Virus record (IMG/VR): IMGVR_UViG_3300033068_001325
Source of the DNA: an uncultured virus (IMG/VR IMGVR_UViG_3300033068_001325)
Taxonomy: Duplodnaviria; Heunggongvirae; Uroviricota; Caudoviricetes
Strand: one strand, 5' to 3'
Length of the DNA stretch: 20,000 nt
Under the pieces are notes generated by a model that made no database searches, was not told the origin of the DNA, and saw only the letters and a program-made list of their open reading frames with translations. This document shows positions 1,919 through 8,045 of the stretch, piece by piece. Numbering within the stretch: the stretch's first letter is position 1; the number at the start of each line of letters is the position of its first letter. The translations under genes were made by a program, and so were the position numbers.

Positions 1919-2184
1919 GTCAGCCCCTTCCGAAGTTTCTTAGCTTCCTTTGTCAGCCGGCGAAGGTTTTCCTTCCCCTGCTCGGGATGGTCTCGGAATC
2001 TAGTCCAAAGCGCGATCATGTAGTTGGCGAGCGCAACGCGCGATCGCTTCGTCATGCTGCCGGCGTAGCCCGCCGGACGATCGCCGTCCCAGACACACAG
2101 ATTTGTCGTCAAGCCCACCACGCCGCTCCAAAACTCCCACGAGCAGCCCGGCGCCTTTATCGGCATTTTTTTGTGGATGTTCAT
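1915..2184 (-). CDS. Hypothetical protein (89 aa)
   Basis: ATGA overlaps at both ends within the minus-strand operon. Confidence 0.65.
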   Translation of the reverse strand: MNIHKKMPIKAPGCSWEFWSGVVGLTTNLCVWDGDRPAGYAGSMTKRSRVALANYMIALWTRFRDHPEQGKENLRRLTKEAKKLRKGLT

Positions 2185-3014
2185 GTGGGCGCCTTTCCGT
2201 CTCGCTTGAGACCTTCAACGATCAGTTTGATTGCTTCCTTGCGGTCTCGATAAAACACCTGCCGATGCACGCCGATGTCGCGGCACTTCCTCGCGATCGG
2301 TGCACCCCATGCGCGCCACATCGCACCGAGATTGGCAAAGCCAGCAAGGTCAGGATGCTCTTCGCGTAAATAGGTGAGGGTCCACCCAAGCGATTCTTCT
2401 GCACGGCGCATTTCGTCTGCCGACGGAAGCCCGCTCTTGAACCGATGCGCGATCGCGTTGCGTAGCGACTTGTTGCCGGCCTGGTGCACAAGGTCAGACA
2501 TCTGCCTGATAACTTGAGGCATCGCATTTCCAAATTCGCGCGGATATACGCTGCCCGAGGTAGCGCGAAACAGCGTCTTGAATGCCTCGGTCAACCGCTC
2601 CTCGACCAAACCTTCGGTCCACTCGACTCCAGAAATGCGCGCACGCGCTGTGAGCTCTTCCTGTCTCTCACGACGGCGGCGGGATAGAACACCAGGATCC
2701 ACCGGCACCGTCTCGCCGGAAAACGATTCCACTCGATCGGCTTCTTTGCGCAGGAGCTGCATTTTGTCGTCGACATTTCCTACAGGGGAAATCAAGTCGT
2801 CCGGCAATGGAGCCAGAACATCTTCACGATCGATGTCGGCTTGGCCGATCAATCCATCGGGACCAACCTGCAACGGCCAGTCGCGATCCTTGAACCTTTC
2901 CTTCAAGCGGCGTCGATGCTTTCCAAGCTTGCGGTTTTCCCGCTCGTTTTCAAGCCGACGCTCTTTGCGGTTTGCCAAAATCGCAGGATCAGAGGGCTTT
3001 TTTGTATCCACCAT
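2181..3014 (-). CDS. Putative late-gene transcription regulator (DUF6362-like C-terminal HTH region)
   Basis: WTEGLVEERLTEAFKTL...PSADEMRRAEESLGW...IARKCRDIGVHRQVFYRDRKEAIKLIVEGL resembles the alphaproteobacterial phage DUF6362 family; located where lambdoid Q-type genes lie, after replication genes. Confidence 0.65.
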   Translation of the reverse strand: MVDTKKPSDPAILANRKERRLENERENRKLGKHRRRLKERFKDRDWPLQVGPDGLIGQADIDREDVLAPLPDDLISPVGNVDDKMQLLRKEADRVESFSGETVPVDPGVLSRRRRERQEELTARARISGVEWTEGLVEERLTEAFKTLFRATSGSVYPREFGNAMPQVIRQMSDLVHQAGNKSLRNAIAHRFKSGLPSADEMRRAEESLGWTLTYLREEHPDLAGFANLGAMWRAWGAPIARKCRDIGVHRQVFYRDRKEAIKLIVEGLKRDGKAPT

Positions 3015-3032: not shown

Positions 3033-5537
3033 CTAAAATGGCATCGGGTCTGTCGAGCTCTCGCCCGGTGCAAGAATTGGCTTTGGTGGATCCTTCTTCT
3101 TCGGAACAGGAGGCCATTGCAATCCCTTACCATATACGCGACGGCCGGTCGGCCAAATCCAATGCGTATCAGTGCCGGGCTCTTGCATAATTCCGATGAC
3201 ATTGTAGGGCACCAAACTCTCGTGGAATCTGCGCGTGCGCGCCTTCAAGCGACCGCGATATTTAGCCTCGTCTTCACCCTCTTCCTTCGGCTGACTGAGC
3301 CGATATTGGCGGGCAAGATCGGTCCACTTCACAACCTTCCCAATCGAGTTTGGAATCTGCAGGTGTGCTGGAGGAGGAACGCCGACGGTGTCGATCGCCT
3401 TCAATAGAGCCTGGAATACACCGACGTCATGTCCCTTCAAGTAGAAGCCTTCAGGACGCGGCCGGCCAGCAGCATGCTCATCGATCACTTCGCCAGGAAC
3501 ATGCTGCGCTGGCTCGATCGACACCATTGACGTAATGGGGTCGCCATCTTCGTCCGTTCCGATCTCCACCGGCTCGAGAACAAACTCCCATTGCACACGG
3601 TCATCGCCCTCGCGCTGCTTTTGAATGACGCCACGGCGAACGACTCGACCATTGTCATCACGCTTTTCCGTTTTCGCCTTCGCATCTGTGACAACGCGCT
3701 CGATCAGAATTGCGGTCTCGATATTATTGAAAAACTGCTCATTGCCACGATGCTTTCCTTCAGCATTGGTATGGCCAATGATAATCAGCGGCGCGCCCGT
3801 CAGGTCACGCAATGTCTGATAGTTTTCGAGAATGCGATTGATGTCTTCCGACTTGATTTCGCTCGAGCCTCGCGACGCTGCATTATGCGTGTCGACGACT
3901 ACGGCTCCTAGCGGGAGCTGGAATCCTTGCGACATCTGCACAATTTCGTCAGCAAGCGCCTTGGCATTGTCTTCGCTGGCGAACAGGTTCGGCGGCCGCG
4001 TGACCCAAGCAAATGAATGCAGGTCCGCAGCTGTCATCCCGTAGTGCTGGAGATAGGCGCGCAGCCGGTTTTCAAAACCTGTGGCGCCTTCATAGGTGAG
4101 ATAGACTGATCCGCATGGAATGACCTTCCTGCCGGCAAAAGGCTCACCGCTGTGCATGTGCATCAGCATGTCGAGGCACTCAAATGTTTTGCCTGATCGG
4201 CTTGGCCCCATCAGCAGCGCGTTGTCGTGCATGGGAAGGATTCCCTTGATGCGCCACGGATAGGCGCGCACTGGAGCGCCAAGATCGAATGAAGTCTTTG
4301 CCCCGAATTTCGATTTATAGGGCTCCGGCTTCCATTCCTTCAGTCCGTCTACAATCTCCAGCAATTGCTCCTTGGTGCCGCCAGCGATATCGCGCCAGTC
4401 CTTGACGTCACCCTTCATCGGACACTGCTGCCACACGTCGCGGAAATTGAGCGACTGCACCAGCTCGACGCCAACCGCCTTCAACATCGGAGCCAGCTTG
4501 GCTACGCGCTCGGCACCTGCGCGATCGTTATCCTGGAGAATGATGACGTTACGAGCACCGCGGAAAAACTCGGCGCAGGCCGGCGTGAAATGCTTCGCTC
4601 CGCCGGAGTTGGTTACGGCCAGCAAGCCCCACTCGGTCAGCACGTCGACCTTCGCTTCACCTTCGGGAATGAAGATCGAGCGTTGATCTTCCTTCGGCTC
4701 CTGCAGCTCGTCGATCACGGCATTGGCATTGTAAAGCCAGTGATCGACGTTGCCGAGCTCGGCAAATGTGCGAACCGTGATGTTATTCCACTTCAGCCGC
4801 TCCTCATTCGCCCGCAGCCATGCAGAGCTCCGCGCCGTCTTGATGAATTCAAACGGTTCGTTGCTGTCTCGGTCCAGCACGTCAAGGCCAAGAATCCAGG
4901 TGCCGTCGCCGGCCGGGCGGCGCTGCATGAATGTCTTCCAGATTTTGCCTTCCCGCGTGCGCTTCCACTCACCATCAGGCATGCGCTCCTGCATGCGCAC
5001 GACCTGGTAGAGCAACTGGTTTTCCGGATCGACATAGTTCCACTCGGCTATGACTTCCCGTTTTCCCTGCGCAGCAGGGCGAGCGGAAGCGCCGGCATTC
5101 TCTGCAGCATCTCCCACACTTCCCGCAGCCCGATCTCCTCGAGCTGCTCGCGCACCTTCTGCTCGGCCTGGAGGGGGTCGAGATTCTCGTCCTGCATTGT
5201 CATGTCGACCAGACGAAGCCGCAGACTGTCGAGCTCCGTTTTTGTGGCTCCCCTCCATGAGATCGACGCCGGCGAGCTGCGCAAGCTCTTTGACCGCCGC
5301 CGGGAAGTCGAGGCCTTGATAGATTTGCATGTATTCGAAGACGTCGTGCCCTTTGCCATCGCCGTCCTTTCCGAATTCGCACCAGATTTTCTTGCCGTCG
5401 TTGACCGTGAAGGACTCGTTGCCCTTCTGCACCCACTCGCCCGCACCCTTCTTCACCAACTGAATATACGAGCCGATGACGTCGCTCGGCTTCAAACGAG
5501 TTTTGATTTCTTCGATGTCGCGCGGGTCGAATGACAT
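3033..5537 (-). CDS. Primase-helicase fusion: DnaG-type N-terminal domain + TOPRIM + RepA/AAA_25 (SF4-like) helicase
   Basis: N-term IEEIKTRL...SFTVN...DVFEY...LDFPAAVKELA (DnaG ZBD-like); TOPRIM IPEGEAKVD...IILQDNDRAG...GDVKDW; Walker A GPSRSGKT, Walker B VVVDT, IIGH...RG motif. Confidence 0.9.
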   Translation of the reverse strand: MSFDPRDIEEIKTRLKPSDVIGSYIQLVKKGAGEWVQKGNESFTVNDGKKIWCEFGKDGDGKGHDVFEYMQIYQGLDFPAAVKELAQLAGVDLMEGSHKNGARQSAASSGRHDNAGRESRPPPGRAEGARAARGDRAAGSVGDAAENAGASARPAAQGKREVIAEWNYVDPENQLLYQVVRMQERMPDGEWKRTREGKIWKTFMQRRPAGDGTWILGLDVLDRDSNEPFEFIKTARSSAWLRANEERLKWNNITVRTFAELGNVDHWLYNANAVIDELQEPKEDQRSIFIPEGEAKVDVLTEWGLLAVTNSGGAKHFTPACAEFFRGARNVIILQDNDRAGAERVAKLAPMLKAVGVELVQSLNFRDVWQQCPMKGDVKDWRDIAGGTKEQLLEIVDGLKEWKPEPYKSKFGAKTSFDLGAPVRAYPWRIKGILPMHDNALLMGPSRSGKTFECLDMLMHMHSGEPFAGRKVIPCGSVYLTYEGATGFENRLRAYLQHYGMTAADLHSFAWVTRPPNLFASEDNAKALADEIVQMSQGFQLPLGAVVVDTHNAASRGSSEIKSEDINRILENYQTLRDLTGAPLIIIGHTNAEGKHRGNEQFFNNIETAILIERVVTDAKAKTEKRDDNGRVVRRGVIQKQREGDDRVQWEFVLEPVEIGTDEDGDPITSMVSIEPAQHVPGEVIDEHAAGRPRPEGFYLKGHDVGVFQALLKAIDTVGVPPPAHLQIPNSIGKVVKWTDLARQYRLSQPKEEGEDEAKYRGRLKARTRRFHESLVPYNVIGIMQEPGTDTHWIWPTGRRVYGKGLQWPPVPKKKDPPKPILAPGESSTDPMPF

Positions 5538-5542
5538 TTGCG

Positions 5543-6136
5543 TCAGGACTTCCTATCGAACTTCGTTTTTTCGCGCCCCCATGTCGACCAACCTTCACGC
5601 GACTGACGCGCGAAGATGTCGGCGCGTCGCCAACCAGGAGTCAGCCGCTCGAGCTCGGCATAAAATTCATCCGGCTTGCGTGAATTTTCGCGCGCAAGAC
5701 CCGGCAACTCTGCCTCACCGAAGGTCTCGATCAGGTTCTTCATATCCCGACCACGAAAGCCATGTCCCCTGCGCGCAGTAATGAGATACGGCTCGCAGAC
5801 GGTGCGAACAATATGCCCGGGGCCCCATCGTAGCTTGCCGTTGACGCTGCGCTTTGACCATGCTCCGCCGGTTTTTACTTCAAGGCCGAACACATCCTGA
5901 ATAATGCGCGCCTGCTTTGCGATCAGCGGCCATGTAACCCAGAAGAAGACAACACCGCGCGGCGATAGCAGATCCTCCGGCCGCGTTTGTTCTATTTCCT
6001 GGAGCGTCATGGTGTCGTATTGCGGCGTCTTCTTCCGACCGCTGTCGGCCCACGTCTCCCACGGCCACGGGTAGTCGATCATCACCAGATCGAAGGCACC
6101 AATAGGAAGCGGCCGGAAGAACGAATGCTCAATCAC
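5543..6136 (-). CDS. MT-A70 family adenine methyltransferase (orphan)
   Basis: FDLVMIDYPW, Y.TMTLQEI, VVFFWVT, WSK, G...R...E, SRKPDEFY, DIFARQSREGWSTWG: full MT-A70 motif series. Confidence 0.9.
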   Translation of the reverse strand: MIEHSFFRPLPIGAFDLVMIDYPWPWETWADSGRKKTPQYDTMTLQEIEQTRPEDLLSPRGVVFFWVTWPLIAKQARIIQDVFGLEVKTGGAWSKRSVNGKLRWGPGHIVRTVCEPYLITARRGHGFRGRDMKNLIETFGEAELPGLARENSRKPDEFYAELERLTPGWRRADIFARQSREGWSTWGREKTKFDRKS

Positions 6137-7146
6137 GAGACTTCCTTCATGATGAGACCGAAGCCGGGATAATATTCAATTTTCAGACCGATTTCGGCGA
6201 GCTGCTTGTTCATGGCAAGGCATGCGTGCCGAACCTCATCACGATGCTTTTCCGTATTGGAGCCGATCACTTCTTGAGCCAAGAAGGCCTCGCTGATATG
6301 CCCCTTTCCCATGGCAATTCGCAGTTTGCTCGCAAAAATGTAGTAGCGCGACGTCGGCAACATGACTGACTTGTCGCCATGATTGAACTCCACTCCCTTC
6401 GGAGCAGGAATTGTCGGCTTCGGTGCAACCTTCGGCGCCAGTGGCGCTACCTTTGGAGGAGATATGGCTGGCGCAGGCGAAGATTTTGCAGCACCAGGCA
6501 ACACAAAGTTGATCCCGCTGCGCGCAAGCTTTTCAGCTTTGACAAAATCATAGAGAACAGCTGTCCAGCTATCAGGCATTGCCGCCCAATACTTCACACG
6601 CGCCCAATCGCGAATCTGTGGTCCGGATGCGGCCCCTCCTAAGGCAGCTATCGCCTCAACTGCAATTGCCAAATTGGTAGGAATACTTGCAGGACGCCCC
6701 GCTTTCGATGGAGCTCCTCCTACATTGCGGTTTGCTTTGGACGCTTCAACCGAAATGATACGTGCCGCTTCTTGAACGGTTTCTGCCGAGCTCGACCGCT
6801 CGCTTCCCATCCGGGTTTCCTCGGGCGCTTCCGTGGTCTTCGCGTCTCCGCTCCCACTCGCTACGCCTTCGGCGCCGGCCATAGCCTCGTCCGTCGGCTC
6901 GGCAGAACTCTTGATTGGAGCAGTACCAGGATCGGAGAGTGTGTCTCCGGGCACAAGCCATTCAATCTCGATGCGTTCGGCAGGCCCATAGACCATGTCG
7001 AGAATAGACTCCATGGCGCGCAGCCACTCGAGTCGATCGGCCAACGGCCACACGGCGCCGCGCGCTGGAAGACGTTTGAGCATCTCGACAATAACCGGGT
7101 CCGTCCAACCCGGGACGCCGTCAACGCTTTCGGCTTTGCTTGTCAT
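6133..7146 (-). CDS. Multi-domain putative DNA-binding protein (central wHTH-like and C-terminal OmpR-type wHTH-like domains)
   Basis: Start set at ATG 7146 (MTSKAES); N-terminal LP..GAVWP...R.EWLRA...DMVYG helical module; low-complexity linkers; C-term ISEAFLAQEV...VRHACLAMNKQLAEIGLKIEYYPGFGLIM resembles Trans_reg_C wing. Confidence 0.6.
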   Translation of the reverse strand: MTSKAESVDGVPGWTDPVIVEMLKRLPARGAVWPLADRLEWLRAMESILDMVYGPAERIEIEWLVPGDTLSDPGTAPIKSSAEPTDEAMAGAEGVASGSGDAKTTEAPEETRMGSERSSSAETVQEAARIISVEASKANRNVGGAPSKAGRPASIPTNLAIAVEAIAALGGAASGPQIRDWARVKYWAAMPDSWTAVLYDFVKAEKLARSGINFVLPGAAKSSPAPAISPPKVAPLAPKVAPKPTIPAPKGVEFNHGDKSVMLPTSRYYIFASKLRIAMGKGHISEAFLAQEVIGSNTEKHRDEVRHACLAMNKQLAEIGLKIEYYPGFGLIMKEVS

Positions 7147-7417
7147 CCTTCGCCGCCCTTTCCAGCTCCTGCCGCTCGAGCCACTCGACCAAAGTGCAGA
7201 CATCTCGCATAGCCTGCAGCTCGCGCTGGTGCTCTTCCGCCATTCGTTTTTCCCCGCAATTCGCACCGCTGCAGGGGATAGGTTCGCCGTCTTCGTCGCG
7301 TTGCCCGCATGTCGGTGACAGGCAATTGCGCCGCGCGTAGTCCCGCAAGATGTGAACGCGATACAGCGCCCATGCGTAAATTCGATCGCGGGGGCGCTGC
7401 TCACTCAGGGATGTCAT
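7121..7417 (-). CDS. Hypothetical Cys-containing protein (98 aa)
   Basis: MTSLSEQRPRDRIYAW...CLSPTC...CSGANC...; protein-like, fills the gap between the resolvase and the 7146 start with short overlaps. Confidence 0.6.
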   Translation of the reverse strand: MTSLSEQRPRDRIYAWALYRVHILRDYARRNCLSPTCGQRDEDGEPIPCSGANCGEKRMAEEHQRELQAMRDVCTLVEWLERQELERAAKDDKQSRKR

Positions 7418-8045
7418 CGCTATCGTCAACGAACAGCCTCGCCGCCGCCCTCTCTGTTGCCCTGGTCGGCGCCGTCGGCTCGTCAAACATCTTCGGCGAA
7501 TCGATGCCGCGCTTTCCGCGAGATTTCCCCTCCGTCTCCGCATACCACGCGGCAATCAGGAAGGCCTCGGCACGCTGATGGTCTTTTTTGCGCGCGAGAA
7601 AGGGCGCAATCTGCGGATAGCGGCGAATGGCCAGCTGCCGCGCGGGCTCCTTGCCGGCATCGCCTCCGGGCAAATTGAAATGGCGCTTCCACACGGCCGG
7701 CATGACGACGTGCTGCAGCGGGATTCCGAGACACGCCACTACCGCCTTGATCGCGTACCAGCCGCCGCCGAACTTGAATGTCGACGCCACGCCCATGTCG
7801 CGACGCTCTCCGGTGCGCGGGTCCGGAATCGACGGCATCGCCATCGCACGCTCAAGCACCACAAAATCAGGCTTCAGCGCGTACAGCCGATCGCGCAGCG
7901 CAACGTAGTTGAGCTCTCGGTTTGCCTTCTCGCCCATGGTTGGCAAGTCGAAGATACCGTCAGGGGTGGTGGGGACGGTGCTATCCGGCAGGAAGAGCGC
8001 GCACGCACCCTCAATGCCAGGGTCGATCCCGACAATCCGTCGCAT
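7401..8045 (-). CDS. RuvC-like Holliday junction resolvase (phage/MOC1-type)
   Basis: IVGIDPG catalytic motif, VVLE, FKFG, P..WK..F.L, D..RAEAFLIA. Confidence 0.88.
   Translation of the reverse strand: MRRIVGIDPGIEGACALFLPDSTVPTTPDGIFDLPTMGEKANRELNYVALRDRLYALKPDFVVLERAMAMPSIPDPRTGERRDMGVASTFKFGGGWYAIKAVVACLGIPLQHVVMPAVWKRHFNLPGGDAGKEPARQLAIRRYPQIAPFLARKKDHQRAEAFLIAAWYAETEGKSRGKRGIDSPKMFDEPTAPTRATERAAARLFVDDSDDIPE

Follow-up and report, generated by a model that had tools for sequence, protein, structure and literature searches.

We analysed a stretch of 20,000 nucleotides from an uncultured virus of the Caudoviricetes (IMG/VR record IMGVR_UViG_3300033068_001325), referred to below as the window, in which the minus strand encodes a primase-helicase of 834 amino acids (aa) at 3033..5537. 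The gene was recognized from its open reading frame (ORF), from Pfam matches, from the PHROG primase/helicase families that match the 834-aa protein, and from 66 homologs. Between its N-terminal Zn-ribbon-like domain and the Toprim-like region the protein has a low-complexity spacer (G/R/S/A/P/D; about aa 95-160; 5058..5255, minus strand), and sequence comparison suggests that the DNA coding for this linker is probably read in the +1 frame as well, as a second coding sequence that is functional and most likely expressed by internal initiation upstream.

The Pfam matches along the protein were to Zn_ribbon_DnaG at aa 6-93 (32.2 bits, E 9.2e-8; Pfam cut-off 24.9), to AAA_25 (RepA/DnaB-like) at aa 418-593 (91.8 bits, E 5.7e-26; Pfam cut-off 27) and, in a Toprim-like region at about aa 294-364, to Toprim_3 (21.4) and Toprim_2 (18.1), both under the Pfam cut-offs. 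This order of Zn-ribbon, Toprim, and P-loop helicase is that of a DnaG-type primase fused to a RepA/DnaB-like helicase. A word-indexed search using primase residues 1-320 matched 66 proteins, 46 of which (P0001-P0049 minus P0027, P0029, and P0046, which were length outliers or truncated; weaker matches were omitted) were aligned (alignment A1). The linker comprises about 65 residues, from the end of the Zn-ribbon-like domain (...AGVxL) to a conserved GK(R/K)EV...W(D/N)Y, and in the primase frame the 46 homologs displayed little conservation, with indels and a length that differed by tens of residues.

Across the linker the +1 frame of the same strand is open. An earlier note on this DNA had placed here the motif GGAGGGGAG (5256-5248), a gap of eight bases, an ACG codon (5239-5237), 63 codons, and a TAG stop (5050-5048), and each of these features is present where it was described. 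The 63 codons from the ACG read TELDSLRLRL...RRENGKS, and the +1 ORF as listed from stop to stop is longer (5048-5446, 132 aa). The conserved core of the peptide comprises 47 codons (KTELDSL...WEMLQ; 5102..5242, minus strand), which include predicted helices 1-3.

Selection on the two frames of the linker

Relatives with nucleotide sequence came from three scans: the IMG/VR scan yielded 91 relatives (77 distinct loci retained, about 10 of them close and full-length), the metagenome scan yielded 19 loci, and the scan of genome contigs with the primase yielded one distant locus only. After removal of contigs that occurred in two collections (L080 = L005, L085 = L002, and L087 = L009) and of the near-identical L083 and L084, there were 13 distinct sequences spanning the linker: the window, L079, L001, L082, L005, L002, L010, L086, L006, L003, L009, L091, and L007. 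The 12 sequences besides the window are viral and metagenome contigs with a primase identity to the window of about 52-79%. L008, L012, L015, and L090 are distant primases (28-39% identity), and about 35 further homologs are known from protein sequence only. L092, a partial contig with frame disruptions, entered alignments A2 and A3 only; in this short, low-coverage contig (L092:1435-2706) the Zn-ribbon-coding part contains stops and frame breaks and the embedded peptide is intact, and it represents either an assembly error or a decaying primase copy. The proteins of L010 and L086 are identical from about residue 77 on, linker and embedded peptide included, and differ widely over the first ~75 residues; this sequence pattern suggests a recombination breakpoint within the Zn-ribbon-like domain.

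A look for +1 stops in close homologs, which the earlier note had proposed, found none in the core in any of the 13 distinct sequences, and the peptide was alignable and amphipathic in all of them (consensus: xxxLDxLxLRLIxLxxxxHPxLDxxQAxxxVRxxLExIGLxEVWExL). G39 and L40 were invariant across the 13, and hydrophobic positions were retained by conservative changes. The +2 frame had stops in all nine sequences displayed. Openness alone is weak evidence, as 40-codon stretches of the +1 frame elsewhere in these GC-rich genes are open in about 18% of cases. Because the +1 frame is conserved in 12 homologs, the +2 frame has stops in 9/9, and the substitutions follow the pattern of a coding +1 frame, the peptide is far beyond chance.

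Substitutions were counted by the Nei-Gojobori method in 41 gap-free linker codon columns of 11 sequences (55 pairs; L082 and L086 were left out as near-duplicates). Within the linker, the ratio of nonsynonymous to synonymous changes (pN/pS) was 0.68 in the +1 frame (column bootstrap 0.59-0.75), 1.22 in the primase frame (column bootstrap 1.05-1.46), and 0.96-0.97 in the +2 frame. The three flanking domains showed the opposite relation (0.34-0.50 in the primase frame and 1.13-1.53 in the +1 frame). None of 1000 bootstrap replicates gave a +1 ratio in the linker equal to or above that of the primase frame, and the +1 ratio was the lower one in all five independent (phylogenetically separate) pairs. 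Nucleotide variability was highest at the third codon position of the +1 frame (0.59 vs 0.43 and 0.435), and mean amino-acid identity in the linker was 0.37 in the +1 frame vs 0.26 in the primase frame (BLOSUM positives: 0.55 vs 0.40). Since the ratios, the bootstrap, the pairs, the position-3 variability, and the amino-acid identity agree, the selected reading frame inside the linker is, by this comparative evidence, the +1 frame, and selection switches frame there. A frame-specific comparison of this kind had been proposed in the earlier note, and one of the readings offered there, that of a live gene in the alternative frame across the linker, is supported by purifying selection specific to that frame, by a predicted fold, and by conservation in relatives.

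The primase frame over the linker behaves, judged by its substitutions, as an off-frame that is merely held open. When AlphaFold2 was run on the primase-frame linker, with the same DNA and the same 13 sources as for the +1 model described below, no secondary structure was predicted (predicted local distance difference test score, pLDDT, 58; predicted template modelling score, pTM, 0.12). With a pN/pS of 1.22 and no predicted structure, the linker is like off-frame text, just as the earlier note had remarked when it quoted the low-complexity sequence.

We infer from the comparison of sequences that the +1 peptide is translated. In a rival reading it is not, and the +1 pattern would merely reflect base composition, selection acting on the primase linker, or an element in the RNA or DNA. 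GC-rich DNA (59% here) does give long open off-frames, the start is not conserved, and homologs outside the clade of the 13 were not found. Against this reading stand a primase frame that is unconstrained and a +2 frame that is neutral (0.96) and stop-rich, with constraint in the +1 frame only, variation that is highest at +1 position 3, hydrophobic positions retained by conservative changes, and a +1 peptide that AlphaFold2 folds confidently from just 13 sequences. RNAalifold found no consensus structure over the linker region (0 pairs, 11 sequences), and the RNA-structure explanation was dropped. We consider it very improbable that the +1 frame is not translated.

None of the sequencing runs listed was recorded as RNA. 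Among the contigs of four runs, the identical phage was present in three. Run X6 gave one low-depth contig of 132 bases with 17 listed linker differences, nine of which fell on the third codon position of the +1 frame. Of the codons affected, 3 changed synonymously and 9 nonsynonymously when read in the +1 frame, against 1 and 12 in the primase frame, and the +2 frame gained two stops. This contig is consistent with selection on the +1 frame and is too thin to count.

Predicted fold and distribution of the peptide

AlphaFold2, given the alignment of the 13 sequences in the +1 frame, predicted three helices (residues 2-20, 24-37, and 41-48; pLDDT 76.5, core about 88; pTM 0.56), and the peptide is accordingly modelled as a three-helix bundle. 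What is conserved in it is chiefly the hydrophobic residues of the core and the helix breakers (H-P, I-G-L), which suggests, as far as sequence can tell, a small binding module rather than an enzyme. Two more specific readings were rejected. The invariant I-G-L turn had been taken by eye for a helix-turn-helix; the third helix is short and acidic, and DNA binding is without support. A DNA mimic was also considered, and the net charge varies, with an acidic core in the window and basic cores in L003, L009, and L091.

Outside the primase clade, searches found no relative of the peptide. Pfam gave no match to the window peptide and, among the 13, only matches to single members (E 0.006 or weaker); PHROGs gave no match to the window peptide; Foldseek against PDB and BFVD gave none with E <= 0.001 for the peptide model; and nothing usable for the peptide came from the ESM Atlas. 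A wide structure search with VIA reached a best Z of 5.0, a value common for helical models and thus uninformative. Tblastn with the peptide as query found no match in 50,697 phage records, and a profile search of 1.84 billion protein representatives yielded six matches at E <= 0.001. Two of these (P0071 and P0072) are regarded as spurious, being repetitive proteins matched over several short stretches. P0067, P0068, and P0070 were judged by sequence to be gene-caller products of the same embedded frame: the N-termini of P0067 and P0070 are the Zn-ribbon domain read off-frame, and the sequence of P0068 recurs unchanged within the peptide embedded in L092. For P0069, which is too short to reveal its context, a gene call of the same kind is assumed. 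Neither a free-standing homolog nor an in-frame fusion of the peptide was found among the 1.84 billion representatives. The homology search proposed in the earlier note thus turned out positive for the embedded copies, and negative for free-standing homologs and for Pfam, PHROG, and PDB matches. The peptide would thus represent a new protein family, encoded by an out-of-frame embedded viral gene, which is a known kind of gene.

A hidden Markov model (HMM) of the peptide, run against six-frame translations of 99 sequences, matched only the 13, L092, and duplicates, with no match in L081 nor in the four distant primases. In a maximum-likelihood tree of 17 primase-helicases (midpoint-rooted only, with long outgroup branches), all peptide bearers fell into a single starred clade (98/100), within which L081 was nested, and L008 + L090 and L012 + L015 fell outside. 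On this tree the presence of the peptide requires two changes, namely one gain and one degeneration in L081. The linker of L081 (L081:3001-5433; 64% identity) is about 25 codons shorter; its +1 frame is open, helix 1 is gone, and the peptide HMM is silent. Similarly short linkers occur in several homologs known as proteins only, e.g., P0033, P0034, P0036, and P0037. The outgroup primases likewise have long low-complexity linkers, and these are without the peptide.

This distribution bears on the suggestion of the earlier note that the +1 frame is a fossil gene captured when the domains fused. We considered it as a once-separate gene or a once in-frame helical linker that is now off-frame and decaying. 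A peptide more protein-like than the formally read frame is what a fossil would leave, and L081 demonstrates that degeneration is possible. The purifying selection, however, was measured among the members of the clade and so acted after the clade had diverged, which contradicts decay, and the core is free of stops in 13/13; moreover, the outgroups have long disordered linkers lacking the peptide, and the profile search returned no free-standing or in-frame homolog. A fossil is, in our judgement, scarcely credible.

Candidate starts and the end of the +1 frame

The motif GGAGGGGAG (5248..5256, minus strand) is the strongest Shine-Dalgarno (SD)-like site in the gene (-9.8 kcal/mol, top 0.4% of positions). 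It sits in a short insertion specific to the window (LMEGSH), and an SD at this position was absent in 12/12 relatives, which gave -3.8 to +0.1 kcal/mol at the aligned place. It may serve this lineage as an additional start signal or act as a pause site, or it may be fortuitous. The candidate start of the earlier note, the ACG at 5237..5239 (minus strand), follows it at an ideal spacing, and the conservation of the peptide begins exactly there. If this codon were used, a 63-aa protein would be made from ACG 5239, 8 nt behind GGAGGGGAG, at least in the window phage and possibly as a second isoform. The aligned codon in the 12 relatives is ACG in six and ATG in one (L005), so that the ATG which the earlier note had proposed to look for at 5239 occurs in 1/12; the other five have GAG, AGA, AAC, or GCC, which are two or three positions off ATG. 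The Asn/Asp-Gly codons that the primase needs impose the ACG, a codon from which the bacteria studied so far start only very weakly, and a start here leaves the openness of the +1 frame further upstream unexplained. The combination of this SD with the ACG is specific to the window and is not supported as a general start, and the 63-aa protein seems quite improbable to us. Nor is there support for the ATG 12 codons later, which the earlier note had offered in place of the ACG and which would remove the conserved first helix.

We favour, on the sequence evidence, an internally initiated protein of about 103 aa over the ACG-started 63 aa and over a frameshift at the domain boundary, because the +1 frame is open for about 40 codons upstream of the core in 12/13 sequences and an ATG with an SD-like motif is present in 9/13. 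In the window, the proposed overlapping gene would run from an ATG at 5359-5357, taken as the start, to the TAG at 5050-5048 (5048..5359, minus strand; 103 aa). Its product would have a basic, S/T/R-rich N-terminal stretch, which overlaps the Zn-ribbon-like domain, followed by the three-helix core. The ATG lies 5 nt behind the SD-like GGAAAGGA (5365..5372, minus strand; duplex -5.3 kcal/mol), which is similar to the SDs of the real genes of the window (GGAAGGGAAG or AAGGAAG, -4.3 to -9.3 kcal/mol). P0070 is a gene-caller product of 103 aa with the same start in a relative. Across the 13 sequences, the ATG is found 39-42 codons upstream of the core in nine, with a GTG in L005, and the SD-like sequences reach -2.8 to -8.0 kcal/mol. 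Synonymous resampling of the primase frame gave a probability of 0.06-0.76 per sequence that those 40 codons are open, and of control 40-codon stretches elsewhere in these genes 18% were open vs 27% in the simulation. In L003 and L009 the upstream ATG is made by an AAT Asn codon, which these genes otherwise nearly avoid (2/33 and 1/29 Asn codons), and the simulated probability of an ATG there is 0.04-0.05. L006, the sole sequence with an upstream +1 stop, 21 codons before the first Leu of the core, has a TTG two codons past that stop, behind GGAGGG (-9.8 kcal/mol).

The frameshift product of the earlier note can be weighed against the same data. A programmed +1 (or -2) frameshift after the Zn-ribbon-like domain would yield a protein of about 155 aa, Zn-ribbon plus three-helix tail, beside the full-length enzyme, in a logic analogous to that of dnaX tau/gamma. 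It would suit a +1 frame without a positionally conserved start codon and a peptide that starts directly after the domain ends, and in the window and L005 the sequence AAA_A permits perfect +1 re-pairing three codons before the core; yet a tetranucleotide for +1 re-pairing within 25 codons upstream of the core was found in 3/13 only (AAAA in the window and L005, GGGG in L082), and no other nucleotide motif is kept at the boundary. The strong SD-like motif just upstream could assist such a shift in the window, to which it is confined. The +1 frame stops at the end of the linker in 8/13; a -1 heptamer X XXY YYZ near the 3' end of the +1 ORF, which could return ribosomes from the +1 frame to the primase frame, was found in 1/13 only (L002, A AAA AAG). 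A shift at the boundary needs no openness upstream, yet 40 codons are open there in 12/13, and L006, with its upstream stop, has the strong SD and TTG right after it. With no conserved slippery motif and no in-frame fused form among the profile-search matches, we regard a frameshift as unlikely.

The TAG that ends the +1 frame (5048..5050, minus strand) is made by ATA 5051-5049, the only ATA among the 42 Ile codons counted in the primase gene. In 8/13 sequences the +1 stop coincides with the GK(R/K)E(V/I) motif that opens the conserved catalytic part, and it is composed of rare NTA codons or of GTG-A.

In the account that we prefer, ribosomes in frame 0 would make the 834-aa primase-helicase, whose ~65-residue spacer would be unconstrained in sequence and only held open. 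This mRNA would also yield a second product in frame +1, most likely through ribosomes that initiate internally, ahead of the linker, at starts that vary between phages; in the window it would start at ATG 5359 behind GGAAAGGA and end at TAG 5050-5048, giving about 103 aa. The C-terminal ~50 residues would form the small three-helix bundle, the selected part and functional module, and the N-terminal ~40 residues would be a basic stretch whose sequence is set by the Zn-ribbon codons that it overlaps. The frame most likely arose de novo when the ancestor of a single primase clade acquired it by overprinting on a linker that was disordered already, which fits the long low-complexity linkers that the outgroups also have. 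Since the peptide can be made only from the primase-helicase mRNA, its position and obligatory co-expression lead us to guess at an accessory or regulator acting with the phage replication module, a guess that we offer as tentative and would not be surprised to see fail. The account in full, a folded three-helix protein born de novo by overprinting on a disordered primase-helicase linker, kept by selection as the primase frame drifted, and acting on the replication machinery encoded by the mRNA from which it is made, strikes us as quite possible, if somewhat short of probable.

Several points weigh against a second functional coding sequence, or against the start proposed for it. The 13 related sequences amount to only about seven lineages, and selection on the core is moderate, with a ratio of 0.68 rather than 0.2. 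The shorter-linker homologs known as proteins only probably lack the peptide, and with helix 1 lost in L081 and short linkers elsewhere, the peptide may be dispensable in some lineages. There are no homologs, family matches, or structural neighbours that support a function. As for the start, no positionally conserved start codon was found, and in L010 and L086 the 50 codons upstream are devoid of ATG, GTG, and TTG. Conserved Zn-ribbon residues account for both the ATG and the SD-like motif; an ATG of the window type is expected by chance with a probability of 0.66-0.89, an SD score of -5.3 or better occurs at about 16% of gene positions, which makes GGAAAGGA weak alone, and the proposed N-terminal extension is without protein constraint in the +1 frame (ratio 1.09).

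Comparison with known systems and implications

The closest analogue in logic is the ALTO/middle T ORF of polyomaviruses, which overprints the disordered N-terminal region of the helicase-containing large T antigen (Lauber et al., 2015; PMC4446436). ALTO is, like the phage frame, an alternative-frame ORF that arose de novo inside the gene of a viral replicative helicase; it overlaps an N-terminal disordered part between folded domains, and the ancestral frame was kept with both frames read, which for the phage we take from comparison. The two differ in that ALTO belongs to a eukaryotic virus and its expression, through splicing or alternative initiation, has been demonstrated, and in that its region is largely disordered with short linear motifs, whereas the phage frame is predicted to fold into a three-helix bundle. 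There is no sequence relation between ALTO and the phage peptide.

T7 gene 4.1 (NC_001604 11635..11757, annotated as 'hypothetical protein'; L098) is a +1-frame ORF in gene 4A, (11635-11565) mod 3 being 1. Like the frame of the phage peptide, it is small and lies towards the 5' side of a primase-helicase gene, where the Zn-binding domain adjoins the remainder of the protein, and it ends exactly at the start of gene 4B. Unlike the phage peptide, it has 40 aa and overlaps the region coding for the Zn-binding domain rather than a long linker; it is annotated and uncharacterised. The two are not similar (hhalign probability 0.15%), a search of the literature on T7 gene 4.1 found nothing, and we know of no evidence of its expression. 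It may be worth asking whether other phages, too, have small +1 ORFs at this place in their primase-helicase genes. Full genes embedded off-frame on the same strand, with their own start on the same mRNA, include lambda Rz1 in Rz and phiX174 B in A; their starts are canonical and conserved, and what they make and do (spanin and scaffold) has been demonstrated, unlike the proposed +1 gene of the phage primase, where the start is not conserved and the product is predicted only. Searches of a collection of open-access papers turned up no account of a gene embedded in the linker of a phage primase.

The host gene itself shares the order Zn-ribbon, Toprim, and P-loop helicase with T7 gp4/Twinkle-type fusions. 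It differs from these in a Zn-ribbon-like domain without a CHC2 site, in a Toprim region below the Pfam cut-offs, and in a linker of about 65 aa that is disordered and, as we propose, doubly coding. A full set of CHC2 zinc ligands was not found in primase aa 1-95 (5253-5537, minus strand), which contain just one Cys (C53) and one His (H64), so that the N-terminal domain is unable to form this site or to bind zinc canonically. No invariant Cys was found in this domain among the 46 homologs of alignment A1, and the relatives L003, L007, and L009 lack even an equivalent of C53. The nearest cultured relative of the primase is that of Microcystis phage Mae-JY30 (33% identity, 77% query coverage; annotated 'primase DnaG/twinkle'), and with this as the best match no close cultured phage was found.

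The minus strand of the window carries a series of phage replication and recombination genes. In addition to the primase-helicase, we noted a DUF6362-like ORF (2181-3014), an MT-A70 DNA methyltransferase (5543-6136), an ORF of 423 aa with a low-complexity, Ala/Pro-rich middle (6133-7404), and a RuvC-like resolvase (7401-8045), all on this strand. Among the genes upstream of the primase, the start of one overlaps the stop of another by 4 bases at 6133-6136 and again at 7401-7404.

The models predict here that the overprinted frame is folded and the host frame beneath it disordered, which is an unusual arrangement; if true, it is the opposite of what is usually seen, namely that disorder lies in the new frame. 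Since gene callers do not allow one gene inside another, the product is invisible in every annotation of this phage group, with only four stray gene calls of the peptide among 1.84 billion protein representatives. The linkers of large phage enzymes would then be a hiding place for unannotated genes, and a screen for frame-switched selection within the disordered linkers of large phage proteins suggests itself. If translated, the peptide would be an additional player in the phage replication module and a natural example of a division of constraint, in which one frame needs length and openness and the other needs a fold.

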